Positions 21,843-56,870 are shown, counted from the stretch's first letter. The stretch is 64,000 bases of DNA from an uncultured Pirellulales bacterium (GCA_964462515.1 CAYWXK010000013.1:4675-68674); one strand, 5' to 3'. Program-made: numbers and translations. The notes: generated by a model not told the origin, from the sequence alone.

Positions 21843-24623
21843 ATGAAAAAATTTATTTTTACCTTTGCATTTGTGCTGGCGGTAGTGGTCTATCCGGCCA
21901 GGAGTCGAGCGAAGGTTTGGACGGTTAATTGCAATGGCGGTGCGAACTTCACTAAAATCCAGGATGCGATAAACGCCTCCTCGAATGGTGACACTATCTT
22001 GGTTACGCCTTGCACTTACACTCAGAACCTTGTTTTCAATGGCAGGGCCGTTACTATTACCAGCACGGACCCGAACAATCCAACTGTTGTGGCGACAACG
22101 ATTATTACCGTCAGCTCCGGCGACAGCGTGAAGTTTGATTTCGGCGAAGGTAGTAATTCTGTGCTCACCGGTTTTACCATCACCGGAGGAGGTATCAATT
22201 GTTACGGCAGCTCGCCGACAATTTCCAAGAACGTTATCAAAAATTGTCCGGGCGAGGGTATTTATGGGCAAAGCGCTGCTGCCCCTATTATTTCGGACAA
22301 TAAGATAAGACTGAATGGCGGGGCAGGCATATATTCTTGCAACGGGCTCATCATCGGCAACAGTATATCGCACAACAATGGAGGTATATCAGAGTGTCAA
22401 AACCAGAATAGCAGGATAATCGACAATATTATTTCAGACAACTCCCGGACTACCGGCGGTTCTGGAGGCGGCTTGTATCTTTGTCACGGTGAAATCTCCG
22501 GTAACGAAATCAAAAATAATTATGCTTCTTTTTATGGGGGCGGATTATATGGTTGTAACGGCAATATCAGCGGTAATATTATCGCCGGGAACATAGCCAA
22601 TTCTGCGGGCGGCGGTCTGTTTAGTTGTCAGGGTGACATCAGTCATAATATTATTTCGGGAAATATCAGCTTCGACGGCGGAGGGCTTTATGGGTGCAAC
22701 GGCTATATATATAACAACACTATTGTGGGCAACAGGGCGGTTTACGGCGGTGCAATCCGTGACTGCACCGGATATGTGTGGAATAATATAATAGCCTTCA
22801 ACGAAATATTCGTTGGGGGTGAGGCAGCCGGCATTTACGGCTTTTGCAATAATTCATTCAATGATTTCTGGAACCAGGGCGGCAACTTTGGTAGTGGCGC
22901 ATCTCGCGGCCAGGGCGATATTGTCGAGAATCCGCTTTTTATAGTTAATGGCTGGTGGGATAATAGAGGCACTCCGGACCCAAGTGACGACGTTTGGCAT
23001 GATGGTGATTACCACGTTAAATCCGCAGTGGGAAGATGGAATCCTAACCCGCCTTCGGTAGGCTGGATTAAGGATGATGTAAACAGCCCCTGTATTGACG
23101 CTGGTTACCCCGCTTCGGATTGGACTGAGGAATTGTGGCCGCACGGCCGGCGGATAAATCAGGGTGTTTATGGCGGAACGCCCGAAGCGAGTATGTCTGC
23201 AAATAAAGTTGGCAACGCTGCCGACATAGATGACGATGGGTGGATTGATTACAACGATTTGATGCTTGTAGCCCAGATGTGGTTATCTGATGAGAAGCCG
23301 TTGGCTGAAGACATCGACAGAGATGTAGCGGTGGATTTTCAGGATTTTGCTGTTCTTTGTGCCAACTGGAAGCCGCAGACGCCGCCAACGCCGAATCCTA
23401 TGACGTGGGCGACTCCGCCTTATGCGACATCATCTTCTTCGATTGCGATGGTGGCTACGACAGCTACAACAACCGATGGCAGCGGCGTGGAGTATTATTT
23501 TGAGGATGTCAATCATCCACAGCACAATAGCGGCTGGGTTTCGTTTGGGGTTGGTGTGCAGGCGATGTGGGAAGATACGGGCCTGACTGCTAACACTAAA
23601 TACTGGTACAGGGTGAAGACCCGCAATAAGGGTAATCTTTTGGAGACCGATTGGTCTATTGTTGCCTCTGCAACGACACCCGGGCCGCCAACGCCTAACC
23701 CTATGACCTGGGCGACGCCGCCTTATGCAACGTCAGATACTTCTATTGCAATGGTGGCTACGACTGCTACATCGACCGATGGAAGCGGTGTGGAGTATTA
23801 TTTTGAGGACGTTAATCATCCGCAACACAATAGCGGATGGATTTCGTTTGGAGTGGGTGTGCAGGCGAGGTGGGAGGATACGGGCTTAACTGCTAACACT
23901 AAATACTGGTACAGGGTGAAGGCACGCAATAAGACCAATCATCTGGAGACCGGCTGGTCTAATGTTGCCTCTGCAACGACACCGAGGCCGCCGACGCCCG
24001 ACCCTATGACCTGGGCGACTCTGCCTAGAGCGACATCATCTTCTTCGATTGAGATGGTTGCTACGACGGCTACAACGACCGATGGCAGCGGCGTGGATTA
24101 TTATTTTGAGGATGTCAATCATCTGCAGCATAATAGCGGCTGGATTTCGTTTGGAGTGGGTGTGCAGGCGCTGTGGGAGGATACAGGCCTGACTTCAAGC
24201 ACTAAATACTGGTATAGAGTGAAGGCCCGCAATAAGGGTAATCGTCTGGAGACCGCATGGTCTATTGTTGCTTACGCAACGACTTCTGGCGTAGATGTTA
24301 CGGCTCCGACGCCTAATCCGATGGACTGGGCTCCTGATGGCGAGCCGAAGGAAATCTATGGAGGTGGTGGAACCTGGGACTACTATGCTACAATGACAGC
24401 GGTAGAAGCCACCGATGCGAGCGGAGTTGTAGAGTATTACTTCCAATGCACCACTGATGGCCGATACTCCAGCCCCGGCTGGCTTTCATTTGAGCCAGGC
24501 GAGCCCTGCACATACAACGTCCTGGTTGGCCAGAAAAACCGGCACTTTTATTTCCGCGTTAAGGCGCGCGACCTGTATGGTAATGAGACGGACTTTTCGG
24601 AAGCACTGCCAGCCGACCCTTAA
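21843..24623 (+). CDS. secreted right-handed parallel beta-helix repeat protein with dockerin-like segment and 3-4 fibronectin-III-like repeats
   Basis: Signal peptide. About 20 tandem beta-helix units of 22-23 aa (..NxIsgNxAxxGGGLYxCxG..). A conserved GDYHVK...SPCIDAGYP module. A dockerin-like calcium-binding DIDDDGWIDYNDLMLVAQMW. Three near-identical repeats of about 100 aa (PTPNPMTWATPPYATS...TKYWYRVKARNK...), then a diverged fourth repeat. Confidence 0.8.
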   Translation: MKKFIFTFAFVLAVVVYPARSRAKVWTVNCNGGANFTKIQDAINASSNGDTILVTPCTYTQNLVFNGRAVTITSTDPNNPTVVATTIITVSSGDSVKFDFGEGSNSVLTGFTITGGGINCYGSSPTISKNVIKNCPGEGIYGQSAAAPIISDNKIRLNGGAGIYSCNGLIIGNSISHNNGGISECQNQNSRIIDNIISDNSRTTGGSGGGLYLCHGEISGNEIKNNYASFYGGGLYGCNGNISGNIIAGNIANSAGGGLFSCQGDISHNIISGNISFDGGGLYGCNGYIYNNTIVGNRAVYGGAIRDCTGYVWNNIIAFNEIFVGGEAAGIYGFCNNSFNDFWNQGGNFGSGASRGQGDIVENPLFIVNGWWDNRGTPDPSDDVWHDGDYHVKSAVGRWNPNPPSVGWIKDDVNSPCIDAGYPASDWTEELWPHGRRINQGVYGGTPEASMSANKVGNAADIDDDGWIDYNDLMLVAQMWLSDEKPLAEDIDRDVAVDFQDFAVLCANWKPQTPPTPNPMTWATPPYATSSSSIAMVATTATTTDGSGVEYYFEDVNHPQHNSGWVSFGVGVQAMWEDTGLTANTKYWYRVKTRNKGNLLETDWSIVASATTPGPPTPNPMTWATPPYATSDTSIAMVATTATSTDGSGVEYYFEDVNHPQHNSGWISFGVGVQARWEDTGLTANTKYWYRVKARNKTNHLETGWSNVASATTPRPPTPDPMTWATLPRATSSSSIEMVATTATTTDGSGVDYYFEDVNHLQHNSGWISFGVGVQALWEDTGLTSSTKYWYRVKARNKGNRLETAWSIVAYATTSGVDVTAPTPNPMDWAPDGEPKEIYGGGGTWDYYATMTAVEATDASGVVEYYFQCTTDGRYSSPGWLSFEPGEPCTYNVLVGQKNRHFYFRVKARDLYGNETDFSEALPADP
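23386..24300 (+). repeat. three tandem near-identical ~300-303 bp coding repeats (FN3-like units) plus a diverged fourth copy
   Basis: Repeat units start at about 23386, 23689 and 23989, with more than 90% nucleotide identity by eye. The diverged fourth copy starts at about 24301. Confidence 0.8.
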
Positions 24624-24732
24624 CAACAAAAAAATTGCCTGCGGGCTTGACAAGGGGCGGACAATTTCCTATTGACTATCGCATATCGGACGCAATAATT
24701 GTGCGCAAATAGTCTAAAAAAGGAGATTTGTT

Positions 24733-24915
24733 ATGAGAGTGAGTATCGAGGATACCTGCACTGCCTGCGGGCTTTGCTGCGATACCTGTCCTGAGGTTTT
24801 TGAGATGGGCGAGGACAGGGCACAGGTCATCGTTGTTGAGGTTCCTGCCGAATATGAGGACGCCGTTCAGCAGGCCGCCGATGAATGTCCCGTCGAGTCG
24901 ATTATAGTGGAATAG
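24733..24915 (+). CDS. small [Fe-S] ferredoxin
   Basis: 60 aa with CTACGLCCDTCPEVF....ECPVESI, a single-cluster ferredoxin of the Pyrococcus type. Strong AAAGGAG RBS. Confidence 0.7.
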   Translation: MRVSIEDTCTACGLCCDTCPEVFEMGEDRAQVIVVEVPAEYEDAVQQAADECPVESIIVE

Positions 24916-24966
24916 GGTATAACAGATAAAGGACAGAAGTTAGCCTGTCTTTATCAGGCGGACTAA

Positions 24967-25086
24967 CCCCGCACCAATGGTTCGACAAGCTCACCATCCC
25001 GAGCGGAGTCGAGGGATGGTTCGCCCAAAGTCGCAAATGTCCGGTCTTTTACAAGAAATGCCCACTACGATTCAATTGGTGCGGGG
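24967..25086. repeat. inverted-repeat element with 'ccccgcaccaatgg ... ccaattggtgcgggg' terminal arms and internal hairpin
   Basis: 14-15 bp terminal inverted repeats enclose about 90 bp that contain the hairpin ccatcccgagcggagtcgagggatgg. The element lies between convergent genes (ferredoxin and proC) and is a member of a dispersed family (see findings). Confidence 0.75.
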
Positions 25087-25926: not shown

Positions 25927-26019
25927 TCTCTTTACTCCTTGTAAAACAGGAATTGAGAGCTATAATCGTAACTGAGAGTTTATCTGCACTAAATATAAGG
26001 TTGGTTATGGAGAAACACA

Positions 26020-26544: not shown

Positions 26545-26567
26545 AATGATGGAACTTTTTTGATGCT

Positions 26568-27528: not shown

Positions 27529-27616
27529 TTGGCTGATGGCTCAAACTACTCTATACTCAGGCCAAAATTCTTAATGGCTCTTGACAAATAAAAGCACTTG
27601 TTAAGGAGTATGCCCG

Positions 27617-28993: not shown

Positions 28994-28997
28994 ATTA

Positions 28998-29078
28998 GCC
29001 CGCACCAATTGAACGGTAACGAGCGTTTTTTGCAAGAAACTGGATGGCCTCAATTTTGGGCGAACAATTGGTGCGGGG
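28998..29078. repeat. inverted-repeat element 'gcccgcaccaattgaacgg...gcgaacaattggtgcgggg'
   Basis: Same terminal arms as the 24967 and 31080 elements. Located between convergent genes, so it is a candidate bidirectional terminator. Confidence 0.75.
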
Positions 29079-29083
29079 TAAGA

Positions 29084-31079: not shown

Positions 31080-31182
31080 GTCATTGCGAGCCCCGCACCA
31101 ATTGAACTGCTGCGAGCGTTTCTTTCAGAAGACCGGACATTTCCGACTTTGGCCGAACAATTGGTGCGGGGCGTGGCAATCC
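31080..31182. repeat. 'gtcattgcgag-ccccgcaccaattgaac...caattggtgcgggg-cgtggcaatc' inverted-repeat element
   Basis: The most complete copy of the element family: outer gtcattgcgag/ggcaatc flanks plus the ccccgcaccaattg arms. Confidence 0.75.
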
Positions 31183-33482: not shown

Positions 33483-33511
33483 CTTTTTACTCCAGATAAA
33501 ATTTTTCAAGC

Positions 33512-34471: not shown

Positions 34472-34706
34472 TAAAAGACTCTAACAAAAAGAATTTTAGC
34501 CACAGAGAACACAGAGAAATGAATTATAAGCAGTGTAAATCTGTGTTAATCCGTGTCTAATATCAACAGGTTAATCTGTGTCTTTTTCATTATGTTAGAC
34601 GCTCTAAATATCTCCATTCTCCAGATTTCTCCTCACTATATCACATACCCGCTATCGTTTGGCAGAAAAAATTGAAAATAATAAATTGTAAATAGAAAAT
34701 ATCGAA

Positions 34707-34797
34707 CGTCCTCCGTCCTCTGTCTTCTGTCTTCTGTCTTCTGTCCTCTGTGTTCTGTCCTCCGTCTTCTGCCTTCCATCCCTGCCCCCTGCCCCCC
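34707..34797. repeat. pyrimidine-rich microsatellite (tc[ct]gtc[ct]tc units)
   Basis: cgtcctccgtcctctgtcttctgtcttctgtcttctgtcctctgtgttctgtcctccgtcttctgccttccatccctgccccctgccccccc. About 9-10 imperfect units lie upstream of the 34948 gene. Confidence 0.7.
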
Positions 34798-34947
34798 CGA
34801 TAATCTGATGTTCTACACCCATATTTCCTGATAAACTGATTCCCTGAACCCCGAACCCTGGCCCCTAATAAAGAATTTTTTCTTGCTTCTCATCACCTAC
34901 TTTGGTATAATTCGATAAGCTAACGATACTTATGAGGAGACAAAGCT

Positions 34948-37521: not shown

Positions 37522-37576
37522 GGTCAACATAATTTGATGTCGGGCAAAGGGCTGGAAGGTTATTCCATAAACTGTA

Positions 37577-38788
37577 TCAGAAGTGTAGTGACTTCGCCGA
37601 AGCCGGCTTCCGTGTAAATGGATGTATTGCTTCCTTAAGCGATACACCCCTGACCTCGATTTGCTTGATGTCGTGTGTCCCTATACCGGCTTGGGCCAGC
37701 AATTGCAGATAGTTCTCGCCCGGAAACGGTGGCTGTGTATGAGCGGCCATTGGGTTGTGTCCTATTACCGTCGTGCAAACAGCATCGGTGCATACTGCGT
37801 TGCGACCGACAAGTAAAAGCTTGGGCTGAATCGGCTCAACGCCCTCATTCCAAAAACCTTCTCCTCCTCTGACTGTGTCGATGCCGTCAATCACAGCAAG
37901 GTCCACCGGTCTCGCGCACACCACGTCAGCGATAATGCGTGGTAAGCGGTAACGCGAGTCGCGCGGAACCCCTCGGTCAACCTCTTGAGGGACACCGGCA
38001 GATAAAGTGCGCTTGCCGTTATGAAGCTGCTGGACACGGGCCTGAACGCTATCTTCATTGGGGGCATCGTCACCATACAGGGCAGTAGGCAGGACGCCAA
38101 ATAAGTTCTTTGAGGCCATCGTCACACCGGCAGCGGCGTGCTCTTTCAGCTTTGATAAAGAGATAAAAACATCCGTCTTTTCATACCACTGGTTGACGTC
38201 AAATGCAGGGAAAAGGTATCCGCCCCAGGGAACTTTAAGCCGGCTGTATCCTGCCCAGCTTCCGCGATTCTTTGTGTTCTCAAAAATAACCTTGTTGCCC
38301 CCTGCGGACTTGATTGCTGCCAGGTCCCAGCCGGCGTCCGTTAAAACCTGCTCAATCGGCTCGCGGTAATAGAGGGCCTCTACAAGAGCTATCCGTTTTG
38401 CCCCGGCATCGTTAAGTGCGGCGCACAACGCCGCTGCGATGTTCTGATGTATCTGATATGTTCGGCCGGCAGGCAATCCGGCCAACTGCTGAATATTACC
38501 GGTGAGATTCATCTTGACCGTGACTGTCTTGCCGCGGACGAGTTTGTCAATACCGCCTATCAGCTCTATCGCGGCATCGAGCTTGCGACGAACCAAACCC
38601 GGCTCGTATGACTCGCATCGCTGAATGGCCACTGGCACACTGGGGGCGACCTTCGAAAGTTCAGGTAGTGGCGGGATTGTCGGCTTCTGCTCGCTGCCCC
38701 AAACCAGAGAAACTCTGCCGCCTACTAATGCCGCCGCTGTTCCCAGGCCGCGCACCAATATCTGCCGTCGATTCATTTTCACAGACAT
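37577..38788 (-). CDS. DUF362-like protein with Tat signal
   Basis: Twin-arginine motif NRRQILVRGLGTAAALVGG, and a DUF362-like core (PVAIQRCESYEPGLV...KTVTVKMNLTG). The family assignment is from memory. Confidence 0.5.
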   Translation of the reverse strand: MSVKMNRRQILVRGLGTAAALVGGRVSLVWGSEQKPTIPPLPELSKVAPSVPVAIQRCESYEPGLVRRKLDAAIELIGGIDKLVRGKTVTVKMNLTGNIQQLAGLPAGRTYQIHQNIAAALCAALNDAGAKRIALVEALYYREPIEQVLTDAGWDLAAIKSAGGNKVIFENTKNRGSWAGYSRLKVPWGGYLFPAFDVNQWYEKTDVFISLSKLKEHAAAGVTMASKNLFGVLPTALYGDDAPNEDSVQARVQQLHNGKRTLSAGVPQEVDRGVPRDSRYRLPRIIADVVCARPVDLAVIDGIDTVRGGEGFWNEGVEPIQPKLLLVGRNAVCTDAVCTTVIGHNPMAAHTQPPFPGENYLQLLAQAGIGTHDIKQIEVRGVSLKEAIHPFTRKPASAKSLHF

Positions 38789-42977: not shown

Positions 42978-43309
42978 CGCCTCGGCCTTTTATTATGAAA
43001 ATGCAAACGACTGTTCCCTTATAATTACCTTGGCTTATAATAACCACGACGCCAGCCATAGTCAAACCAAAATCTGCTCCCGACTGTCCAGGATTTCAGG
43101 CCACTTTCTACCGACTTTAGAGGAATTTGTAACGAAATCGCCTATCAAAAAACCAAAGTTTTGCCCGGCGGCGGTTGACAAAGATGAAAGAAACGGATAT
43201 ACTTACATTATAAGCGGAATTCTAAGAAGTGTTCTTCGCCGGCAAGAAGCCGGTTGGTATTTTTTTGTAATTTAATAATTTGGAATTAGATGGAGTAGGA
43301 GAAATAAAA

Positions 43310-45271
43310 ATGAGAGGGCATTTCAGCATTACTTACTGTTTGGTGGCATTCGCCTTTCTATTGGTGATGGATAATATCGGCTTTGCGGAGCGGATTATAT
43401 ACGTCGATGTTAACGCCACAGGAGCAAACAACGGCACAAGCTGGACCGATGCCTACAACTACCTCCAGGATGCCTTATCTGATGCAAATTCTGCCGCCAA
43501 GCCGGTTGAAATCTGTGTTGCCCAAGGCATTTATAGACCAGATAGGAGCTTGGCTGAGCCAAATGGCACCGGCGACCGGGATGCTACATTTCAGCTTATA
43601 AACGGTGTTACTCTCAAAGGCGGCCATGCCGGCACAGGTCAACCAGACCCTAATGCCAGAGACATTGAGGCATACAAAACTATTCTCAGTGGTGATTTGG
43701 CTGCCAATGACATTCCGAATAAGCCATATTACAGAGATAAAAACACAGAGGAAAACAGCTACCATGTGGTAACAGGTAGTGGGACAGATGCGACCGCTAT
43801 TCTCGATGGTCTGACGATTACTGCCGGTAACGCTGACGCCTCCTATTCAAGTTCAAATCCAAAGAGTCTCGGCGGCGGTATGTACAATGACTCTGGTAGC
43901 CCGACAGTGACGAACTGCATATTCAGTAAAAATGTGGCTGCTTATGGCGGCGGCTGTGTATATAACTACTACGGCAATCCGAGCTTCGCAAACTGCGTGT
44001 TCAACGGGGGCATCGCTTTTTACGGCGGGGGTGGGATGCACAACGAACATAGCAACCCAACGCTGACCAACTGCACGTTTAGCGAGAACGTAATAATTCC
44101 CACCCTGATGGCCATAGGTGGCGGTGGGGTGTACAACTATTACAGCAACCCTATACTGACCGGCTGCACGTTCATTAAGAACTGGAGCGCCAGTAACGGC
44201 GCCGGCATGCTCAACTGGTACAGCAGTGTGACACTAATGCGCTGTACTTTTACCGAGAATTTGGGGAGGGGAATTTATAACCGCAATAGCAGCAGTGCAA
44301 AGCTAACCGACTGCACGTTCAACAAAAACTCAGGCGGCGGAATATGCAATGAGAATGGTACCCTGACGCTCAGCAATTGTATCTTCAGCGAGAACTCAGC
44401 AACGGCAGGAGGCGGTATTTATAATATGTATATGTATAACATGAGCAACAACATAACATTGATTAACTGTAGTTTTAGCGGCAACTTGGCTGGCGATGGT
44501 GGCGGAATATACGGAGGTAGCTCGAAGATTGTCAACTGCACATTCAGCGGAAACTTGGCAGAACGTTCAGGTGGTGGGATGTACACCATAGGTGAGCCAA
44601 CGGTTACCAATTGCATATTCAGTGGAAACTCGGCAGTGGACTACGGTGGTGGAATCTATTGTCAACCATTGCGCCTAACACTGACTAACTGCATGTTTGC
44701 TGGAAATTTGGCAAAAAATGGTAAGGCCATGACATGTGAAGGGGGGATTCCGGTCGGTGTCGTGATGCAGGGAATCAACTGTATTCTCTGGGATGGCGGT
44801 GATGAAATATTCAAGAAATTTAATTCAAAGGTTGATATTACATACAGTGACATACAGGGCGGCTGGCCAGACGAAGGGAACATTGACAAAGACCCATGCT
44901 TTGCCGAGCCAGGTTATTGGGACCCAAATGGAACGCCTCAAGACCTAAATGATGACTTCTGGGTCGATGGTGATTATCACTTGAAATCCCAGGCAGGCAG
45001 ATGGGACGCAAACGAAGGACGATGGACGAAGGATGAAGTGACAAGTCCCTGCATTGATGCGGGTGACCCAAAAAATCCTATTGGCTATGAGCCATTCCCT
45101 AACGGCGGAATCATCAATATGGGCGCCTATGGCGGAACTTCTGAAGCGAGTAAATCATACTTCGGCGAGCCGGTCTGCGAAACCATTGTCGCCGGCGACA
45201 TAAACGGCGACTGCATCGTCAATCTTATAGACTTCGCTCTTATGGCGTTGCATTGGATGGAGGAAAAATAG
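43310..45271 (+). CDS. secreted right-handed beta-helix repeat protein (paralog family) with C-terminal dockerin-like repeat
   Basis: Signal peptide. About 18 tandem units (TNC.F..N.A..GGG.YN..S.P.LTNC). C-terminal module GDYHLKSQAGRWDANEGRWTKDEVTSPCIDAGDP...GDINGDCIVNLIDFALMALHW is about 85% identical to the C-terminus of the 55515-56870 product. Confidence 0.8.
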   Translation: MRGHFSITYCLVAFAFLLVMDNIGFAERIIYVDVNATGANNGTSWTDAYNYLQDALSDANSAAKPVEICVAQGIYRPDRSLAEPNGTGDRDATFQLINGVTLKGGHAGTGQPDPNARDIEAYKTILSGDLAANDIPNKPYYRDKNTEENSYHVVTGSGTDATAILDGLTITAGNADASYSSSNPKSLGGGMYNDSGSPTVTNCIFSKNVAAYGGGCVYNYYGNPSFANCVFNGGIAFYGGGGMHNEHSNPTLTNCTFSENVIIPTLMAIGGGGVYNYYSNPILTGCTFIKNWSASNGAGMLNWYSSVTLMRCTFTENLGRGIYNRNSSSAKLTDCTFNKNSGGGICNENGTLTLSNCIFSENSATAGGGIYNMYMYNMSNNITLINCSFSGNLAGDGGGIYGGSSKIVNCTFSGNLAERSGGGMYTIGEPTVTNCIFSGNSAVDYGGGIYCQPLRLTLTNCMFAGNLAKNGKAMTCEGGIPVGVVMQGINCILWDGGDEIFKKFNSKVDITYSDIQGGWPDEGNIDKDPCFAEPGYWDPNGTPQDLNDDFWVDGDYHLKSQAGRWDANEGRWTKDEVTSPCIDAGDPKNPIGYEPFPNGGIINMGAYGGTSEASKSYFGEPVCETIVAGDINGDCIVNLIDFALMALHWMEEK

Positions 45272-45411: not shown

Positions 45412-45464
45412 GGTGGCACGGCCATCTTGGCCGTGTTTATTCTTCACGGGCTGGAAGCCCGTGC
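45412..45464. terminator. two adjacent GC-rich hairpins between convergent genes
   Basis: Hairpins cacggccatcttggccgtg and cacgggctggaagcccgtg. The second hairpin recurs inverted at 48356-48377. Confidence 0.45.
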
Positions 45465-46618
45465 CACGCATCGTATGAGGAGGCTGATTGTTTGGCGATG
45501 TTAAGCAGGACGCCGACCGCAGCAGATGATAGCAGCATACTTGTGCCGCCTGCGCTTACGAAAGGAAGTGGGATGCCTTTTGTGGGCAGGACTACCGTAA
45601 CTACGCCGATATTTATTGCCGCCTGGAGTGCTATCGTCAGGACGATTCCACCGGCTAAAAGCCGGCCAAACCGGTCTTTACAGCGCACAATTATTAAAAT
45701 ACCCAGCCAGACAAAAGCAATAAATAGTCCTATGACGACTGCATTTCCGACAAAGCCGAGCTCTTCGCCGATGATGGCGAAGATAAAGTCCGTAGTGTCC
45801 TCAGGCAGATGGCCATATTTGCAGATACCTCTGCCGAGTCCTTTGCCGAACAGTCCGCCGGAGCCGAGAGCAACAAGCGATTGGGTTGCCTGATAAGCGG
45901 CTGAATCGGACAATTTGTCGGGCTGCAAAAAGGCGGTGATGCGCTGCATTCGGCTCGGTGAGCGGATAAGTGCCATCAAAAAGGCAGCCGCTCCAAACGG
46001 CATCGGGGTCAGGATGTGCCACAACTTGGCGCCGCCGATAATTAACATCACAAAAGCAAGAAGAGCTATAAATGCCGCTGTGCCGAAGTCTTCAATTATT
46101 ACCAACCCTACGACTAACGCAACCACAGAGCATATCGGGACAAACCTTTTCCAGAATGATTTGAGCTCATCGGCGAATTTATCACAAACGCCTGCCAAAA
46201 AGAATACAAGAATCCATTTTGCCAGCTCAGAGGGCTGAAAGCTTACGGTTATGGGACCGGCAGGAATTCTAAGCCAGCGGCGGGCGCGGTTTATCTCCGT
46301 GCCGAACTGCGGGAGCAAAACGAGTATAAGCAGGGCGATGCTAAGGACTAAAAGGTAAGTAGTAGGCGACCTGAGGAACCCGTATGTCAGTCTGAACCTC
46401 TGGTAGTTGAAACAGGAGGCGGCGAACATAATTAAACAGGCCAGCGGGAAAAACAATATCTGTCGCAAACTGGCGTAGTTGTAGAATTTCTGTAAGTTGA
46501 TTTCCTGCGTGATGTTGGCGCTGGCTGAGAAGACAAAAACTGTGCCGATAGCCATTAGAGAAACAGCAACAAACGCAAGAGAATTGCCGAGGTTATTGTC
46601 TTTTGTCGTAATGGTCAT
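45437..46618 (-). CDS. ftsW: FtsW/RodA/SpoVE (SEDS) family peptidoglycan glycosyltransferase
   Basis: Ten TM helices and SEDS conserved segments (..LGSGGLFGKGLG.., ..DFIFAIIGEELGFVG..). Whether it is RodA or FtsW is uncertain. Confidence 0.8.
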   Translation of the reverse strand: MTITTKDNNLGNSLAFVAVSLMAIGTVFVFSASANITQEINLQKFYNYASLRQILFFPLACLIMFAASCFNYQRFRLTYGFLRSPTTYLLVLSIALLILVLLPQFGTEINRARRWLRIPAGPITVSFQPSELAKWILVFFLAGVCDKFADELKSFWKRFVPICSVVALVVGLVIIEDFGTAAFIALLAFVMLIIGGAKLWHILTPMPFGAAAFLMALIRSPSRMQRITAFLQPDKLSDSAAYQATQSLVALGSGGLFGKGLGRGICKYGHLPEDTTDFIFAIIGEELGFVGNAVVIGLFIAFVWLGILIIVRCKDRFGRLLAGGIVLTIALQAAINIGVVTVVLPTKGIPLPFVSAGGTSMLLSSAAVGVLLNIAKQSASSYDAWHGLPAREE

Positions 46619-48571: not shown

Positions 48572-48781
48572 ATGGCAGAGAACATTTTGTATTACGGCGA
48601 TAACCTGGAAATACTCCGCCGCTATATCGAAAACGAATCCGTTGACCTTGTCTATCTTGACCCGCCTTTAAACTCGGGCAACGACCAGTTAAAGACAAAC
48701 ACCGCCCTGCAAATGGAAGCAGCAAAAATAGAGTTTAAGGTTATATGTTTAGCATTTATTTTGCAAATTCGGTTCTTTTAG
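48572..48781 (+). pseudogene. truncated N-terminal fragment of a beta-class (DPPY-type) N6/N4 DNA methyltransferase
   Basis: ENILYYGDNLEILRRYIENESVDLVYLDPPLNSGND matches the N-terminal 'cut-down' motif (LYxGD...IDLIxxDPPYN) of ParB-/M.RsrI-type MTases. The ORF ends after 69 aa, and no remainder of the gene is found downstream. Confidence 0.65.
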
Positions 48782-48836
48782 CTGATAATTTCTCTGGGAA
48801 AATGAAAACCGATGATTCAAAGGGCCTAAATTCAAA

Positions 48837-51362
48837 ATGTTACAAGTAAAACAACAAATACTGGCTGGCTTCAAGAGCTGTGGATATAAAAACAATCTTC
48901 TTAAAGAAAGATATCAGTATTTTGACGGCAAAGAAAGCAAAACTGCGGAAATAGTCGGCTTTAGTCAGCCAACATATAATTCCTCCACTGCGTGCATCGC
49001 TGCAATTGATAAAACTAAATTGAATGGAAACAGGATATCATCCTATCAATTGCTTGGATGTCCGGTGTTGTTGGTTTGTGATGACAGCGGCTTACAGTTC
49101 TGGAAAAACTCCGGTACTGATGTAATACTTCACGAAGAAGTCGACACGCAAAAATTGGCAGGATTTTTTAAAAAATATGAGAAGGATTTTTCACCACAAA
49201 GCATCTACAGAGCCAAAACAATCGGGCGTGTGAAGAAAGAGTATCAACTTAGTTTTGTCGATCGCGGCTTAATGTCAATTGTCGAAGAACAGGAAGGAAA
49301 ATATTTATCTGGTCTAACTGAAAGAATTATCAGATCGCTGCGATCAGATTGTGGGACAGTTAAAGAAGATAGCAAGTTTGAGAAGTGGCTTTTTCAGGCG
49401 GGCTTCTGGCTTATTGGTGCAAAGATATTAAAAGATAAAGGCGTTGAAGGATTCAAAACACTGGAAATTTCGTCGGTGAGGGATTTGGTTAATAAAATAC
49501 AGAGACATTATAATGCGGCACAAAAACTTGATATATCAAATACCGTGCAAAGAAAAGCACTTGAAAAAGTTGCAAGAGAAATTGTAGAGCCAGTATCAAG
49601 TTTTGCTCATCTTACGACCGAGTCATTGGCTTATGTTTATGAAAATACCCTTACAAGCAAAGACACCAGAAAGGTTTTGGGGACCCATGCAACGCCTTCA
49701 TGGCTTGTTAATTATATAGTCTGGGGGGAGCTAATTGACTGGATTGAAAATATCCCCCAAGAACAAAGAGTTATTCTTGAACCAGCTTGCGGTCATGCGC
49801 CATTTTTGACTGCTGGAGCAAGATTATTAGCCGACCCTCTTCTTTACAAAGGCGATGAAAAAGGCAGGCACGATTATCTCAAACGTCATCTGACTGGGAT
49901 AGACATGGACAGCTTTGCCGAAGAAATTGCCAGATTGGCACTTACTCTGGCGGATATCCCAAACCCCAATGGATGGAAAATCCAACATTCAGACATTTAT
50001 GAAGATGATATTTTAAAAAAGGCAGCTCAAAAAGCCACAATACTCTTTTGCAACCCACCCTTTGAAAACTTTTCCACAAAAGAGAAGCAGAGATACGGCA
50101 ATGCTATTACAACCGGCAATAAAGCCGCAGAAGTTCTTGTAAAAACATTGCCCTATATGCCAGCTAATTCTGTCTTCGGGATTATTTTACCACAGGGTTT
50201 TCTTCACAAAAGAAACCTTGCTGATTTGCGAAAGTATATTTTGGACAATTTTGAATTAAGAACTATCTGCAATCTGCCAGATAAAGTTTTTGCTAAATCA
50301 GGACATTTGTCCACTGTATTATTAGGCCGTAAAACTAAATCTAAAAAGAAAATTAATTATTTGAATATAACCAAAGCCAATCTTGAAAATTTCAAAAACA
50401 CCTATCAGGCAGCCGATGCAGAATTAGTCGGCCGAGATACATTTTATGAAGCGAAAGATTACAGTTTTAGGATTCCGGAATTAAAAGAAGTCTGGGATTA
50501 TTGCAGACACCTTCCTAAGCTCAAAAAATATGTAGAAATTGGTAGAGGGATTGAATACAAAAGTGGACTGGATATTGATGATATAATGAGACATACACAA
50601 TTTCCGGGTTCTAAAAAGGGGTTTTATTCTTATGAAAAAGATACATTAATAGAACGACTCCCAAAATTAGTCTGGCTAAATGTATCTGAAAAGGTAGTCA
50701 ATACTTACGCCAAAGGGATGATATGCCAACCCTTTATATTATTAAACCGAATTAGAAGCAGTAGAACTCCTTGGAGACTAAGAGCTTGGATAGACTTTGA
50801 GGGCCATCCATGCGGGAAGGCCTTTCTCGCGGTTTTCTCAAATAAAGACATTTCTTTATATTCTATTTGGGCCCTCTTAAATTCACCTTTTGCAAATGCT
50901 TACATGTATGACCATTGTATGGCTCAAGATAATAATGAGGGCATATTAAAAAACATGCCAGTAAATTTTGAAGGCAAGGACTTGTCAAAGATAGATTCTT
51001 TGGCACAAGAATATTTCACACTTAACAGTAGCGAATATGTATTACGCGATATAAAGCACCTTAATGAAAAGAAAAGGCAATGCCTGGTAGCTATTGATGC
51101 TGAAATACTGCGATTGTACAATTTACCCCCTCGCCTCGAAAAAACGCTGCTCGACTTTTTTGAAGACATTCAGCGCAAAGGTGTAGACTTCGAGTTTGAC
51201 AGATATTACCCGGAAGGTTTCGACTCTTATATCCCTTTGTATATGTATATATCTAAAGAGTTTCGAAATTCTTCCATCGAAAACGTTAAAAAGTGGATTG
51301 AAAATAACCGTTCACCTGAAGTGATTGAGGCATTTAAGACTGCTGCTAAAATTAAGAAGTAA
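48837..51362 (+). CDS. gamma-class N6-adenine DNA methyltransferase fused to a C-terminal TRD-like region and an unassigned ~130-aa N-terminal domain (type IIG/IIL-RM-like architecture)
   Basis: Motif X GTHATPSWLVNYIVW, motif I (SAM-binding) VILEPACGHAPFLTAG and motif IV ILFCNPPF. N6-Mtase C-terminal signature GIILPQGFLHKRNLADLRKYILDNFELRTICNLPDKVF. A further 350 aa of putative target-recognition region. Visibly AT-rich compared with neighbouring genes. Confidence 0.75.
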   Translation: MLQVKQQILAGFKSCGYKNNLLKERYQYFDGKESKTAEIVGFSQPTYNSSTACIAAIDKTKLNGNRISSYQLLGCPVLLVCDDSGLQFWKNSGTDVILHEEVDTQKLAGFFKKYEKDFSPQSIYRAKTIGRVKKEYQLSFVDRGLMSIVEEQEGKYLSGLTERIIRSLRSDCGTVKEDSKFEKWLFQAGFWLIGAKILKDKGVEGFKTLEISSVRDLVNKIQRHYNAAQKLDISNTVQRKALEKVAREIVEPVSSFAHLTTESLAYVYENTLTSKDTRKVLGTHATPSWLVNYIVWGELIDWIENIPQEQRVILEPACGHAPFLTAGARLLADPLLYKGDEKGRHDYLKRHLTGIDMDSFAEEIARLALTLADIPNPNGWKIQHSDIYEDDILKKAAQKATILFCNPPFENFSTKEKQRYGNAITTGNKAAEVLVKTLPYMPANSVFGIILPQGFLHKRNLADLRKYILDNFELRTICNLPDKVFAKSGHLSTVLLGRKTKSKKKINYLNITKANLENFKNTYQAADAELVGRDTFYEAKDYSFRIPELKEVWDYCRHLPKLKKYVEIGRGIEYKSGLDIDDIMRHTQFPGSKKGFYSYEKDTLIERLPKLVWLNVSEKVVNTYAKGMICQPFILLNRIRSSRTPWRLRAWIDFEGHPCGKAFLAVFSNKDISLYSIWALLNSPFANAYMYDHCMAQDNNEGILKNMPVNFEGKDLSKIDSLAQEYFTLNSSEYVLRDIKHLNEKKRQCLVAIDAEILRLYNLPPRLEKTLLDFFEDIQRKGVDFEFDRYYPEGFDSYIPLYMYISKEFRNSSIENVKKWIENNRSPEVIEAFKTAAKIKK

Positions 51363-51365
51363 AAT

Positions 51366-51842
51366 ATGTCAGGTTATTTATTCGATACTAATATTTGGTC
51401 GTATGCCTTTGGGCAAGCAACGTTTGTTACTGATAAAATCCAAAATCTTGAAAAATCGCAGATATATCTTTCAGCAATTGTGTGGGGTGAGGTGGTTTTT
51501 GGCGCTAAATCTAATCCCAAATTCAATTTCGATGAATACAGAGAATTTATTTACAAAGATAAACCTTTAATTTTGCCTATAGATGAACATGTCGCAGAAG
51601 TGTTCGGGTCGTTGAAAGCAGAAATATTTGAGAATAAATCTGTTAGAGCTATGAGATCAAACTCAGGGAGGGCTAGCTTATTTAAAAATCCGATACCAGC
51701 GAAAGATATGGGAGTCCATGAGAATGATTTGTGGTTAGTAGCCCAAGCTCTTGCATATAATCTTGTATTAATTACAAGTGATCGTATGCATACTATTTTG
51801 GAGTTAGCTCCTAAAGAACTTAAACACGAAATATGGCAATAA
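51366..51842 (+). CDS. PIN-domain nuclease (VapC-like)
   Basis: YLFDTNIWSYAF (first Asp), AIVWGEV (Glu) and ENDLWLVAQALAYNLVLITSD (distal Asp residues) match the PIN fold. The start is 4 nt after the MTase stop. No small antitoxin-like ORF is adjacent. Confidence 0.7.
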   Translation: MSGYLFDTNIWSYAFGQATFVTDKIQNLEKSQIYLSAIVWGEVVFGAKSNPKFNFDEYREFIYKDKPLILPIDEHVAEVFGSLKAEIFENKSVRAMRSNSGRASLFKNPIPAKDMGVHENDLWLVAQALAYNLVLITSDRMHTILELAPKELKHEIWQ

Positions 51843-52564
51843 ATTCAGCATGAAGGTTAAATTTGACCCGAAAGAATTTATGGCGGAAAAAAAGAATCGA
51901 AATAATGGGGACAAATAATGGGAACAGCCCGTTTTTCGACCAACTCCTCGTTTTTCCCCTTCGCCCAAACCAAAATTTACCCGCCGACTTGTCCGGCGTA
52001 GCGCAAGCGGAGTCGGAAGATTTATCGAAGGCGGGCTTGCCCGCCGTTCTTTCGCTTTAAGGCATCTCTCCGTAGGAGTAAAAAATTCAAAGCATAAACC
52101 CGATTGAAACTTGTTTCAGAAAGGGTTTAATTTGAATTTAAGGTGCATTTATGCACTGCCTTAAAGCAACTCTCTGTGGCCTCGGTGCCTGTCCTGAGCG
52201 CAGTCGAAGGGACCTCTGTGGCTAAATTTTTTTATGATATCGTTAGATTTTTATTGAATAAATAGGCATAATCTGGTATAATGCACACGCAATTGGAGGG
52301 AATAACTCCCGCCAGGAGCGGCAAGCTCGCGGAGAACCGCACGCTAAGGAACAGCAGTTCCATGAATTAGTCCATTTTAGCCGCAAAAAAGGTTCAGAAT
52401 GATAAAATCTTATGAAAAACGCAGTGCTTAATATACTTACTGAAAATTCGTGTTTATTCGTGGTTACTTTTGTGCCTTTTGTGATGAAAATAATCTGTGT
52501 TAATCTGCGTAATCTGTGGTTCCCTTTCTGTCTTTGTGTCTTGGTGGCTTTGTGGCTATGAGTC

Positions 52565-52795
52565 AATTATGCAAAACAAAGCCAATTTGCTGGACACTCA
52601 AATGAACGTAACCTCCGCCTATATAACCAGTTACCAATTACCAATAACCAATTACCAATATGCAAAACAAACCCAAACAAAGCCAATTTCCGGAGCAACA
52701 AAATGAACACAACCTTCTTATTAACAAATGATTATGAACAAATAACTATGAACAATGAACCAATAAAAACAAACCCAAACAAACCCAACTTGTAG
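52565..52795. repeat. A/C-rich low-complexity tandem repeats (caaacaaagccaatt units; taccaat heptamer x4)
   Basis: ttaccaattaccaataaccaattaccaata (52631-52660). Two imperfect copies of gcaaaacaaa(cccaaacaa)agccaattt...aaatgaac at about 52568 and 52662. caaacccaaacaaacccaac at 52770. Confidence 0.6.
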
Positions 52796-52935
52796 TGAGC
52801 TTGTCGAATCTATTTCAAACATAACCCTGCAAAAGTGGGGCATCGCCAGTTCTTGTTTATTGACAAAATCAAGGCTTTAGGATATTATATAATTAAGATT
52901 TGCTGCGAGGAATCTTTATTTGAAAGAGAAAGGCT

Positions 52936-53919
52936 ATGGACATAGGAAAAGACAGCCTGCTGCAGCGATATAAGTGGCACATTGTCATTATATGCGCGGC
53001 GCTGGTGATTGTAGTTTTGCTGGCACTTTTTACTGATATATTCCAGAGGTCAGAGAGATTGCAGAACCTGGTATGGCTGCTTGGCGCTTTAGTGTTTTTA
53101 AGCGCTCTGTTGACGATGCTGTCGAGGTCAATTAAGATGCTCGATGCGCTTCGAGATAACAGCTCAAAACTTGAACAAGTTACGGGTGCCCTTGAAAAAA
53201 TTCATGCGGGTTTAGCACAGATAAATCACAGCACCCGGCTCAGCGAGACTGCGAAAGCGATTGCGTTCCGCGACGTGGATAAACAATCTTTGCGAGAGGC
53301 CGTTTTTGACAAGCTTCAGCAGCACAATTTTGACGCGGCATACGATGTAATTGGAGAAATTGCAAAGCGTCCTGAATATAAAGACCTGGCCGATGAATTG
53401 CGCCAGCAGGCAGAAAACTATCAAACTGCAACTGAGCAGGAACGGATAAATCAGGTCATTACACACATTGAGACTCTGATGAACGAGTTCCAGTGGGTCA
53501 GGGCAAGCAGCCATATTGAAGGGTTAATCAATGCTAATCCGGACTGCGAAAGGGCAAAGGCGATGCGGCAAGAGCTGCTCGATAAGAAAGAGGGACGCAA
53601 AAGGACGTTGCTGGCTGACTGGGATGATGCCGTTAAACGGCAGGAAACAGACCGCGGTCTGGAGATTCTAAAAGAGCTTGATATGTACCTTACTCCTAAT
53701 GAGGCGTTAGCCCTTCAGGAGGCGGCGAGGGACGTTTTCCGCACAAAGCTGCACAATCTCGGCGTCCAGTTCTCTATTGCCGTTGCCGAGAAGCGGTGGA
53801 CCGAAGCTCTCGATATCGGCGGGCAGATTATCACCGACTTTCCCAACAGCAAAATGGCTGAGGAAATCCGCACTAAAATTGACATCCTCCAGCAAAAGGT
53901 CCAGTTGCAGCAGAGCTAA
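52936..53919 (+). CDS. membrane-anchored coiled-coil/TPR-like protein (hypothetical)
   Basis: Two N-terminal TM helices, then an alpha-helical region of about 250 aa. No catalytic motif. Confidence 0.45.
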   Translation: MDIGKDSLLQRYKWHIVIICAALVIVVLLALFTDIFQRSERLQNLVWLLGALVFLSALLTMLSRSIKMLDALRDNSSKLEQVTGALEKIHAGLAQINHSTRLSETAKAIAFRDVDKQSLREAVFDKLQQHNFDAAYDVIGEIAKRPEYKDLADELRQQAENYQTATEQERINQVITHIETLMNEFQWVRASSHIEGLINANPDCERAKAMRQELLDKKEGRKRTLLADWDDAVKRQETDRGLEILKELDMYLTPNEALALQEAARDVFRTKLHNLGVQFSIAVAEKRWTEALDIGGQIITDFPNSKMAEEIRTKIDILQQKVQLQQS

Positions 53920-53987
53920 ACGCTTGACATTTTACCTCTTTGAATCTGAACTTGGTTGTAAATTGTCAAATTCTATTCCTGGTCGGC

Positions 53988-55010
53988 TTAAGGCGAAACA
54001 GCCGGAACAGAGGCCGGCGTATCTACCTTTTCCTTTTTGAGCGGTGCGGTCCATAGATAGACTTTGTGTTCGACATTGTCATCACTGGAAGTGATGTCGA
54101 TTACCTGGTCAGGCGTTACTCCTTCCATTGCGAAATCGTGAGAGACAATCCGCGAACCCGGCTTGAGCTTGTCTAACTGCGGTATCAGCTTAACATTCAG
54201 GCTCGGAAGCAGGTAAAGGGTGATTACGTTTGCTTTGCTGAGGTCGAGAGTGAATATGTCTTTCTGCTCGATTGTGACCAAGTGGCCGACGTTGTGTTTT
54301 TCTACATTTTCAAGGGATTCTTTAATGCGCTGAGGGTCGATGTCGTAACCTACGGCTATGCAGCCAAACTTCTGGGCTGCTGTTACCACGATTCGGCCGT
54401 CACCACAGCCCAGGTCATAGAGTAAATCGTCCTTTTTGACCTGGGCTAACTCCAGCATTTTGTCCACGACCTCTTGCGGCGTAGGGACAAAAACGACGTC
54501 CGGAGTCCGGAGTTTCTGGACTTCCTTCTTTGGCTTCGGGATTGTCGGCAAAAGCAGTTCGGCTTCGTTTTCTAAAGGCAGCTCAATTAAGCCAAAGGGA
54601 GGCGTATCAGCCGTGAGAGTTAACTGTGCTTTGTAAGGGATTGTTGAGCCCGGTGTAACGTCCTTGAGGGAATTCAACATCTCTATGTAGTTGACTTTGA
54701 CCGGCAGCGAAACTATCTCTTTGCTGCTGGGCGATATTGCGGTTTGGAGGTTAGTGCTGCCTGAAAGGAATGTATTGTCGCCGTTGGTAAGGCGATAGTT
54801 TAGATTTGTCAGCGGTAAGCTTACCGCGTAAGGATTCTCAATTTCAAGGTCGAATAACAGCATTGCCGATTTCGGCCTGACGTTCTGAAATTTAATGTCT
54901 ATTATTTGACCAGTAGGTTTGGGGGGCGGTGCTTTGTGTGTTGTTTCACACCCTGCAAAAAAAGTTGCCATCAGGGACAATAATGCAATTAGATATTTTG
55001 TAGTTCTCAT
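53988..55010 (-). CDS. lipoprotein: LEA_2/WHy-like beta-sandwich domain fused to class I SAM-dependent methyltransferase
   Basis: Lipobox LMATFFAGC. WHy/LEA-14-like region (IDIKFQNVRPKSAMLLFDLEIENPYAVSLPLTNLNYRL...). SAM motif I LYDLGCGDGRIVVTAAQ and the downstream acidic post-I motif. Confidence 0.6.
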   Translation of the reverse strand: MRTTKYLIALLSLMATFFAGCETTHKAPPPKPTGQIIDIKFQNVRPKSAMLLFDLEIENPYAVSLPLTNLNYRLTNGDNTFLSGSTNLQTAISPSSKEIVSLPVKVNYIEMLNSLKDVTPGSTIPYKAQLTLTADTPPFGLIELPLENEAELLLPTIPKPKKEVQKLRTPDVVFVPTPQEVVDKMLELAQVKKDDLLYDLGCGDGRIVVTAAQKFGCIAVGYDIDPQRIKESLENVEKHNVGHLVTIEQKDIFTLDLSKANVITLYLLPSLNVKLIPQLDKLKPGSRIVSHDFAMEGVTPDQVIDITSSDDNVEHKVYLWTAPLKKEKVDTPASVPAVSP

Positions 55011-55514
55011 AGTTTCTACCTCTTTCAAAAAAGTTTAGCGATATACCCTAACACTGACCCAGTTTTTCACAAAACCCGGATTTTATCCGAAACTATCCTA
55101 AAGTCTATAAAAAAATTTTCAAAAATGGAGCATATCACTGGCTGTCAAACCATTTCTCGAATGTCGTAAGCTGTTTGTCCGCATAGTGTTATCCTACTTA
55201 CAAAAACACGCAGATTTCTAATGGTATGCCCAAGCGTTTGGAATAATTTGCCCAAACTTTCCTAAGCAGCCTTAAAAGACGTGAGCAAAAAGAACACCAT
55301 CAGGTCTATATTGTGGGCTTATTGTCCTACTTGAAAAGAAAGGACATCGAGTCGATTGCCTACCTCCACGATAGCGTAACTGTTACTCGCTTATTTCTTC
55401 AAGCCAGTGACAAGCCAATAATTTTTACCGCAGAGTGCGCGGAGCGCGCTGAGATTATATTTCAATTTTTTCTCCGCGACCTCGGCGGTCTCTGCGGTTA
55501 ATGAGAAATTCGGG

Positions 55515-56870
55515 CTAATTCTCTTCAAGCCAGTGAAATGCAATAAAGGAAAAATCTTCGAAATTGACCTCGCAGTCACCATTGATGTCGCCGGCGACGA
55601 TTGTTTCGCAAACAGGTTCGCCGAAGTATGATTTGCTTGCCTCTTCTGTGCCACCGTAGGCACCCATATTTATAATCCCACCATTGGGGAACGGCTCTAA
55701 GCCGATAGGACTTGCAGGGTCGCCGGCATCAATGCACGGACTTGTAACATCATCCTTCGTCCATCGTCCTTCGTTTGCATCCCATCGTCCTGCTTGTGAT
55801 TTTAAGTGGTAATCACCATTCGTAGCATCTGTAAATAAAGGGTCTGTCGTAATGTTTCCTATTCCTTCACCCTGCCAATCTTGAATACAGGAATAAGAAG
55901 GCACAGAACAATCGATTATTTGTGAATCTGTATATCTGGCCTTGTTCTGCCAGATAATACAATTTGCAATAACGCCACTACAATTGCTCAATCCCGCTCC
56001 CCAGTAGTATACCTCGTTGCCAGAGATAGTATTATTCTCAATTTCGCCATTGCACTTGTACAACCCACCACCCACACCGTATGTTGAGTTACCATAAATC
56101 ACATTATTACGGATACTTGCACTGCAGTAGGCCAGTCCGCCGCCATGACTATTGGCTCTGTTATGTGAGACCGTATTGCCTTGGATGACACCATCACAGC
56201 TACACAGACCACCGCCCAAATAACCTGCTTTGTTATTGGTGATAATATTTTTTTGGATACTTCCATCGCAGTCGGCGAGACCACCACCATACATGGCTCC
56301 ATTCCCACTTATAAGACAGTTAATAATCTCGCCATCACATCCAGCAACTCCACCTCCACTACCAGCTCCTAGTAGTGGCCAACTGAAAGCCATACTATTT
56401 ATGATGCGGCAGTTGATAATTTTCGGCCCGCTCCCACTCTCACAATATATGGCGCCACCAAGACTTCCTAAAGCTTGAGTAACGTAACCATTGCAAATTG
56501 TGACTCCATTCAATTCGGAACTTAGATTTTCACCACTATGGAAATAAAATCCTCGGTGTGGATTCTCCTGTGTGCCGTTGCAGTCGATTATTGTCGTAGC
56601 GACGATGTTCGGGTCGTTTGGGTCTGCGCTGCGGACAGTAATGGCCTTTCCCTTAAAATCAATGTCGCGGTTTCCATCGACCGTGTATGTCCCAGCAGAC
56701 ACGATTACGACATCGCCATCGTTGGCATCATCAATCGCAGCCTGAATGGTATTAAAATCATAGCCACCTCCCTGGCCGACTGTAATCGTCCGCCCCTGCG
56801 CTATTCCTGCCGCCACTAATAGGAACATCCCCACCGCCAGCCCCCATAAGATTGTCAATTTCCGCTTCAT
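55515..56870 (-). CDS. secreted right-handed beta-helix repeat protein (paralog) with C-terminal dockerin-like repeat
   Basis: Signal peptide MKRKLTILWGLAVGMFLLVAAGIAQG and beta-helix units. Its C-terminal module is nearly identical to that of the 43310-45271 product. Start refined to the ATG at 56870. Confidence 0.8.
   Translation of the reverse strand: MKRKLTILWGLAVGMFLLVAAGIAQGRTITVGQGGGYDFNTIQAAIDDANDGDVVIVSAGTYTVDGNRDIDFKGKAITVRSADPNDPNIVATTIIDCNGTQENPHRGFYFHSGENLSSELNGVTICNGYVTQALGSLGGAIYCESGSGPKIINCRIINSMAFSWPLLGAGSGGGVAGCDGEIINCLISGNGAMYGGGLADCDGSIQKNIITNNKAGYLGGGLCSCDGVIQGNTVSHNRANSHGGGLAYCSASIRNNVIYGNSTYGVGGGLYKCNGEIENNTISGNEVYYWGAGLSNCSGVIANCIIWQNKARYTDSQIIDCSVPSYSCIQDWQGEGIGNITTDPLFTDATNGDYHLKSQAGRWDANEGRWTKDDVTSPCIDAGDPASPIGLEPFPNGGIINMGAYGGTEEASKSYFGEPVCETIVAGDINGDCEVNFEDFSFIAFHWLEEN

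Follow-up and report, generated by a model that had tools for sequence, protein, structure and literature searches.

Three probably exported beta-helix genes with a common C-terminal module, and a probable old inversion between ftsW and murG, in an uncultured Pirellulales bacterium

The DNA analysed here is a stretch of 64,000 nucleotides (nt) from an uncultured Pirellulales bacterium (GCA_964462515.1 CAYWXK010000013.1:4675-68674), hereafter called the window. It carries three genes for putatively secreted beta-helix proteins, BH22, BH43 and BH56, which have a C-terminal module in common, and the housekeeping genes around the region are nusA, infB, miaA, ndk, proC, ftsW and murG (Table 1). The three open reading frames (ORFs) lie where the initial annotation, an earlier reading of the same DNA, had placed them. 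Synteny with relatives was anchored on ftsW, murG and o327 (an unannotated ORF of 327 amino acids (aa) at 52936-53919) and on their homologues.

Table 1. Features of the window that are discussed in the text. Positions are counted from its first nucleotide; L numbers denote relatives.
Feature	Position	Strand	Description
BH22	21843..24623	+	926-aa putatively secreted beta-helix protein; Beta_helix 48.4 bits; Ig_Rha78A_N and fn3-type matches
BH22 module	23004..23369	+	GDYHVKS...SPCIDAGYP..., then two dockerin-type Ca-loop/helix repeats, DIDDDGWIDYND... and DIDRDVAVDFQD...; tblastn, 43% aa identity
Three tandem 303-nt repeats, 87% identical	23381..24286	+	Encode FN3/Ig-like domains of BH22
BH43 cassette and last ftsW codons	43131..45483	+	Present in the window, L093 and L176; L174 has a 237-nt murG 5' relic instead
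BH43	43310..45271	+	653-aa putatively secreted beta-helix protein; Beta_helix 82.8 bits; Chlam_PMP 46.1 bits
BH43 module, left arm	44967..45271	+	Located by tblastn
ftsW (SEDS family)	45437..46618	-	FTSW_RODA_SPOVE, E 1e-90; inverted relative to murG
Low-GC islet (GC 0.36-0.41)	48673..52327	+	Strain-variable; 841-aa N6-adenine methyltransferase (PADLOC type I/II MTase models) and PIN-domain protein
BH56 module, right arm	55515..55819	-	Located by tblastn
BH56	55515..56870	-	451-aa putatively secreted beta-helix protein; Beta_helix 36.2 bits
murG upstream 75 nt and first ~55 codons	57036..57272	+	Present twice, inverted, in L174; probable right breakpoint region
murG	57111..58217	+	In most relatives directly downstream of ftsW, on the same strand

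All three proteins passed the curated cut-off of 25.9 bits for Pfam Beta_helix (PF13229), and their N-termini, which are basic and then hydrophobic (12-aa mean Kyte-Doolittle hydropathy 2.5-3.0), look on inspection like Sec-type signal peptides, which bears out their description as secreted beta-helix proteins. An alternative TTG start of BH43 is present at 43280, and the database copy of BH56 (P0121) begins at a TTG at 56936, giving a protein of 473 aa; look-ups of the exact protein returned no record for the 451-aa BH56, for BH43 (also as P0294) or for the LEA_2-methyltransferase encoded next to BH56. The ladder of cysteines that had been described is present, successive rungs having their cysteine at an equivalent position, and its period is not the 22-23 aa given for it: it measures 23-24 aa in BH22 and BH56, and 25-26 aa in BH43. 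BH22 runs from its beta-helix body through the module to four FN3/Ig-like domains.

A tblastn search with the 101-aa tail of BH43 recovered exactly three copies of the module in the window (E 3e-67 for itself, 1e-58 for BH56 and 2e-19 for BH22) and nothing further below E=2. The three are thus paralogous beta-helix proteins with a conserved C-terminal module in common, as had been proposed, and the copy in BH22, which had been called recognisable, shares 43-47% aa identity with those of BH43 and BH56. A 15-nt match to the BH56 stop region at 55396-55410 ('HWLEE...'), considered as a vestigial module end, is probably due to chance (E 0.024, without further similarity).

The module spans ~100 aa and can be divided into two parts, A and B. 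The first of them, part A (~65 aa), reads GDYHLKS...SPCIDAGDP...FPNGGIINMGAYGGT, and its start corresponds to positions ~148-194 of the 194 in the Pfam profile PF08480 (Disaggr_assoc), a partial match that scored 38 bits for BH56 against a cut-off of 22.6 and 24.8 bits for BH22. When 1.84 billion cluster representatives (clusters at 50% identity) were searched exhaustively, part A turned up by itself, without part B, in proteins of ~6000 aa, in 12-14 copies spaced about 445 aa apart. It thus has the character of an end-cap that closes a beta-helix unit; its sequence indicates that it is a C-terminal beta-helix cap, homologous to the end of PF08480. These giant proteins (P0241-P0277) are about 5900-6400 aa long, and each of their 12-14 beta-helix units closes with a part A (45-50% identical). 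What the module has in common with this disaggregatase-related region of Methanosarcina is the ...DPLF..GDYHL...SPCIDAG... end, which matches the last ~47 positions and hence the C-terminal quarter of the profile only, whereas an insert, QAGRWDANEGRWTKD, and the stretch FPNGGIINMGAYGGT lie outside the model.

Part B (~35 aa; ...PVCETIVAGDINGDCxVNxxDFxxxAxHW), in which two conserved cysteines bracket a calcium loop, forms the extreme C-terminus in 99 of the 117 BH56 homologues. Over its last ~28 positions, and there only, a profile of 123 modules matched type I dockerin repeats (5nrk, E 2e-6), with calmodulin EF-hands as the next matches (~1e-3), and the loop DINGDCxVNxxD is followed by a predicted helix, as in the EF-hand-like loop and helix of a type I dockerin. 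Part B thus appears to be a single dockerin/EF-hand-type calcium-binding loop with its helix. It resembles type I dockerins (PF00404; A. cellulolyticus DocCel5, 5nrk/5nrm) in the C-terminal D-x-N-x-D-x-x-x-x-x-x-D loop and helix and in its position at the extreme C-terminus of secreted proteins, and differs from them in the bracketing cysteines and in its constant fusion to the 65-aa part A; a cohesin partner is not known for the module, and no cohesin search was made. NCBIfam offered no named sorting or anchor domain that matches it, Pfam and NCBIfam together held no name for it besides the partial PF08480 match, and a literature search found no description of it.

BH56 was modelled with AlphaFold2 (AF2) on the basis of 66 homologues, and its body showed regular three-strand rungs at a predicted local distance difference test score (pLDDT) above 90. 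A Foldseek search of the PDB with this body returned as top matches the pectate lyase Pel9A (1ru4), the RbmB lyase and pectin methylesterases, with probabilities of 0.98-1.0, and a rhamnogalacturonan lyase; TM-scores (template modelling scores) were 0.24-0.40 and identity was 10-15%. Structure prediction had been suggested as a check on both halves of the protein: the pectate-lyase-like beta-helix was confirmed in the model of the BH56 body, and the C-terminal module was modelled with low confidence. The likeness to Pel9A and other right-handed beta-helix enzymes is known from the fold alone (Foldseek probability 1.0, E 9e-4), at 12-15% sequence identity and TM-scores of 0.34-0.38; because TM-scores and identity are this low, the similarity is generic and does not establish an enzyme family.

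These matches, together with a weak precomputed database match to PF22842 (Pel9A-like_beta_helix), are nevertheless consistent with proteins that are not adhesins and are instead secreted polysaccharide lyases or esterases (PL9/CE8-like), carrying a cellulosome-style dockerin tail that recruits them to a cohesin scaffold. For Limihaloglobus, a cultured representative of the order Sedimentisphaerales, genes for cohesin-containing scaffoldins have been reported (PMC11557425). I consider this possible though doubtful, given the generic nature of the fold similarity, and no CAZy-type model in Pfam or NCBIfam scored above threshold for BH22, BH43 or BH56. In addition, the proteins show very regular GGG/Cys/Asn rungs and polymorphic membrane protein (PMP) repeats, which are typical of non-enzymatic passenger domains. 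BH43 has rungs of the type GGG(I/M)Y...N(C)xF that score 46 bits for the repeats of chlamydial PMPs (PF02415/TIGR01376), but the architecture differs: no autotransporter beta-barrel domain was found in BH43 with Pfam or NCBIfam, and its C-terminus is the dockerin-like module.

The modules of BH43 and BH56, referred to as arms in the following, are 305 nt each, inverted and 10,243 nt apart, in agreement with the opposite strands and the distance of about 10 kb that had been described. The two copies had also been called almost identical, with near-identical 300-bp DNA, and members of a recently duplicated family. The proteins are indeed 86-87% identical over the module, whereas the DNA is only 78.4% identical (239 of 305 positions), with a longest exact run of 29 nt (45008-45036) and with 66 differences, most of which (51) fall on third codon positions. 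Synonymous divergence is saturated (dS 2.39, against a nonsynonymous dN of 0.093 and a dN/dS of about 0.04), the beta-helix bodies share 26% identity, and modules of unrelated proteins from other genomes are 85-92% identical in aa to that of BH43, that is, as close to it as the module of BH56 or closer. On these grounds, the similarity of the two modules would be a property of the whole family that is kept by purifying selection, with some short-tract gene conversion in addition, and not the trace of a recent duplication; the occurrence of the BH56 gene without BH43 in the relative L174 likewise speaks against the latter. The pair is a worked example of why near-identity of repeats at the protein level must not be taken for recent duplication or for a substrate of recombination.

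It had been suggested that the arms mediate inversion of the segment at 45.3-55.5 kb, and for this idea a DNA identity below about 85% had been named as refuting. At 78% the arms fall under this limit and are a poor substrate for homologous recombination. L093 and L176 show the parental left junction (BH43 body, module, and minus-strand ftsW), with flanks at 88-96% DNA identity, and L091, L173, L174 and L175 show the parental right junction (murG, BH56, the LEA_2-methyltransferase gene and o327), with flanks at 89-98% aa identity; over both junctions, the flanking genes are 89-99% identical in protein. No recombinant junction, and hence no inverted isomer, was seen in these six close-relative contigs, each of which crosses one or the other arm. 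The six large genes scanned at 45.4-55.0 kb (ftsW, a serpin, a methyltransferase, a PIN protein, an unknown ORF and the LEA_2-methyltransferase) include no recombinase, small ORFs lying outside the scan. Neither highly similar repeats nor both orientations nor an adjacent recombinase, the marks of an invertible segment, were thus observed, and the proposed inversion through the arms is refuted.

Logan contigs that are 100% identical to the window end at 45187/45190, 48237, 52759, 55499 and 56846. These ends were considered as a sign of an alternative isomer and rejected, as no contig crosses an arm; the end at 45187 lies inside a tract shared exactly with L093, and that at 55499 inside a palindromic element. 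The latter (55429-55506; CCGCAGAG...CTCTGCGG) is located just downstream of the BH56 stop, has a 36-nt match in L092 (19202-19237), and contains the ends of Logan contigs from six samples.

The segment is nonetheless inverted relative to the order found in relatives. Of the 133 informative loci in relatives, 67 have murG on the same strand as ftsW and within 400 nt after it; the window has a minus-strand ftsW and, 10.5 kb away, a plus-strand murG. L174 has the gene order of the window (flanks at 92-99% aa identity), with the BH56 gene kept and no BH43, and directly after its ftsW there is a second copy, 237 nt long, of the murG upstream region and codons 1-55 (MANKSFFFAGGGTGGHIYP...), co-directional with ftsW. 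This copy (20259-20495 in L174), which includes the GGTGGH loop, is an inverted duplicate of the 5' end of the intact murG at 9598-9833, to which it is 85.7% identical, and by its sequence and place it is a relic of the ancestral ftsW-murG junction. It is absent from the window, from L093 and from L176, and was found at no other locus than L174.

The comparison shows that about 45.4-57.0 kb was inverted long ago, that this inversion is fixed, and that it drove ftsW and murG apart. Because L174 keeps the murG relic after ftsW, one breakpoint falls between 75 nt upstream of murG and codon ~55, and the other at the 3' end of ftsW, both outside the module arms; the module of BH56 is internal to the inverted segment, since the segment contains the whole BH56 gene. 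The inversion would have come first, and staggered breaks may have produced it, which would account for the inverted duplication in L174. The relic would then have been replaced by a beta-helix gene, BH43, in the lineage of the window, giving rise to the inverted module pair seen today, and BH43 thus most likely arrived at the breakpoint after the inversion. In Drosophila, inversions with inverted duplicates of the breakpoint sequence on either side have been described and are explained by the staggered-break model; L174 resembles these in having the 237-nt breakpoint piece at both ends of the segment, inverted, and the case differs in that the chromosome is bacterial, the mechanism is deduced from one relative, and the relic has been replaced by BH43 in the window. 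The locus thus records, through this relic, how the conserved cell-division pair of ftsW and murG was split by an inversion.

The order of events could also be the reverse, with BH43 already beside ftsW at the time of inversion and later deleted in L174, in which case the arms were possibly present and involved. Orthologues of BH43 at the same site in L093 and L176 would fit this, as would the beta-helix genes that adjoin ftsW in more distant relatives (L009, L044, L096, L097, L118 and L127). It is unlikely, however, as the relic of L174 abuts o173-like sequence exactly where the window has BH43 and shows a crossover in murG, not in the module, and as two losses (BH43 in L174 and the relic in the window) would be needed in place of one replacement event.

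The relic also bears on the suggestion that the inverted modules are a recent repeat pair through which homologous recombination flips 45.3-55.5 kb, as a switch or as a source of polymorphism. In its favour, the arms do exist as an inverted pair of 305 nt each, the interval is truly inverted relative to the ancestral ftsW-murG order, and the 29-nt exact run, a length reached by 2% of shuffles, is near the minimum of ~23-27 bp that RecA-type recombination needs in E. coli. Against it stand the 78% DNA identity (dS 2.4), the parental state of six out of six contigs and the lack of a recombinase among the six large genes scanned, and a switch is highly improbable; moreover, the L174 relic puts the breakpoints outside the arms, L174 is without the left arm, and a reversal at the arms would still leave the BH56 gene between ftsW and murG.

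The module DNA proved to be mosaic. The BH43 module shares an exact tract of 98 nt with its positional orthologue in L093 (45116-45213) and one of 62 nt with a BH56-like gene in the unrelated context of L092 (45050-45111), in alignments that are only 80-83% identical overall, and at most 1 in 20,000 codon-column shuffles reached such tracts; in one 50-nt sub-window, the module of L176 is 92% identical to BH56 as opposed to 78% to BH43. These patterns point to short gene conversion among paralogues, for which the conserved DNA of the module may be favourable ground. The alleles of BH43 diverge far beyond their flanks (51% aa identity in L093 and 81% in L176). An apparent replacement of the body in L093 at the module boundary, where the blastn alignment stops at 44971, was refined on inspection, as the N-terminus is orthologous at 77% and the module is mosaic. 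At the other arm, a tract of about 2 kb at ~55500-57468 (BH56, its promoter and the first ~350 nt of murG) has 100% DNA identity to L091 (JGI 3300048646), whose flanks reach only 93-97%; the allele may have passed between strains recently, or the assembly may be chimeric.

The closest homologue of BH56 outside the syntenic locus is a BH56-like gene (87% aa identity) in L092 (JGI 3300032799, the same sample as L174). Its neighbourhood includes genes for a phage-type integrase, a small terminase subunit and an AlpA-like regulator, and DUF333, Peptidase_C1 and YadA_head genes come after it. Beta-helix genes may thus travel with mobile elements. A non-coding stretch of the window at 52245-52611 (repeats at 52574-52614 and 52675-52715) is 79-86% identical to the sequence directly upstream of a BH56-like gene of L092 (9519-9830), and holds a TATAAT that resembles a promoter, with a GC-rich and possibly structured segment after it.

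Conversion within the family raises the question of whether the BH43 and BH56 modules owe their similarity mainly to concerted evolution between the two loci and not to selection on the protein. The 5' third of the arms, in which no insertion is present in either copy, is 88% identical, compared with 71-73% to the corresponding genes of L093 and L092, the 29-nt exact run would agree with such exchange, and the mosaic tracts show that conversion does occur in the family. Yet saturated dS at a dN/dS of about 0.04 leaves most of the similarity at the protein level only, hundreds of unrelated proteins from other genomes carry equally similar modules, and the long exact tracts of BH43 match copies other than BH56. 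Concerted evolution as the main cause is therefore quite unlikely, and purifying selection across the family, with some short-tract conversion, is preferred.

With a probability of roughly 0.7, the three genes are members of a very large family of Sec-exported right-handed beta-helix proteins at a locus with an old, fixed inversion and without a switch. In this form the finding is mostly ordinary, as many secreted beta-helix paralogues with dockerin-like tails exist in planctomycete genomes; the genes belong to an already known kind of protein, and the proposed inversion switch does not exist. Several points weigh against this reading. The order of events rests on the single relative L174, and all comparisons were made on metagenome assemblies, which collapse minority isomers. 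Some conversion between BH43 and BH56 is possible, because the 5' third of the arms combines its high identity with a common indel state and contains the 29-nt run. For the tail, canonical dockerins have two calcium-loop/helix repeats, of which BH22 has two and BH43 and BH56 have one each, and the scores for Pfam Dockerin_1 lie below its threshold of 22.9 bits (BH43 15.8 and BH22 21.5). The AF2 confidence for the module is low (pLDDT below 50 in the full-length model and a mean of 61 when modelled alone, with only the terminal helix confident), and its function is inferred only.

The exhaustive search returned 7394 cluster representatives with the module at E<=1e-3 and 895 at E<=1e-30, and many of these are 80-92% identical over the module although the clusters were defined at 50% identity. 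The family is very large, unnamed and centred on the Sedimentisphaerales (Phycisphaerae, Planctomycetota); the window itself is chromosomal DNA from an uncultured representative of this order, the best relatives of its ftsW in the genome collection coming from metagenome-assembled genomes of Sedimentisphaerales or Phycisphaerae, at up to 76-77% aa identity, and metagenome contigs reach 98%. The tail may tether the exported beta-helix in a calcium-dependent manner to a conserved partner at the cell surface or envelope, and would for this reason have stayed near-constant while the bodies, which may bind or cut glycans, diverge fast. With thousands of clusters and 70-92% identity across unrelated proteins, it ranks among the most conserved and abundant, yet unnamed, modules of Sedimentisphaerales exoproteins, and it offers a target for finding the receptor that would organise the cell surface of these sediment polysaccharide degraders.

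A bolder and rather unlikely extension is that the tail, as a beta-helix cap joined to a single disulfide-bracketed, dockerin-like calcium hand, is an undescribed surface-anchoring domain found throughout the Sedimentisphaerales that docks hundreds of different beta-helix proteins per community on one conserved receptor, and that its DNA is at the same time a portable recombination handle, in which short conversion tracts and crossovers would allow strains to swap or replace bodies. Possible examples of the latter are the strong divergence among BH43 alleles, the arrival of BH43 at the old breakpoint, and the BH56 tract that matches L091 at 100%; if true, this would amount to a cassette-style system that diversifies the cell surface.

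Further features of the window were recorded. The fusion of LEA_2 with an S-adenosylmethionine (SAM)-dependent methyltransferase (53988-55028) lies beside BH56 in all close relatives and matches the PADLOC model mad2 (E 4e-18). Two candidate ORFs, o173 and one of 107 aa (52243-52566), are probably not genes; they have no family match and are unrelated to each other. An element of ~80 nt with palindromic ends, CCCCGCACCAATTG ... CAATTGGTGCGGGG, is present in three intergenic copies (25016-25086, 28999-29078 and 31091-31171; 76-82% identical). Rfam gave no match to an RNA family in the window, these elements included, and they could be miniature inverted-repeat transposable element (MITE)-like or repetitive extragenic palindrome (REP)-like repeats, or structured terminators.

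Two other segments vary between strains. A gene of 857 aa at 34472-37601, with FGE-sulfatase, polysaccharide deacetylase and galactose-binding-like domains, is absent from the close relatives L093 and L176; there, the EamA and DUF362 genes are linked by about 250-400 nt. At the site of the low-GC islet, L174 has an SDH_protease and Ada_Zn-binding gene instead, and L093, L091 and the Logan contigs all end at the islet borders. In the distant relative L168, a pair of methyltransferase and PIN genes is located directly after ftsW-murG.

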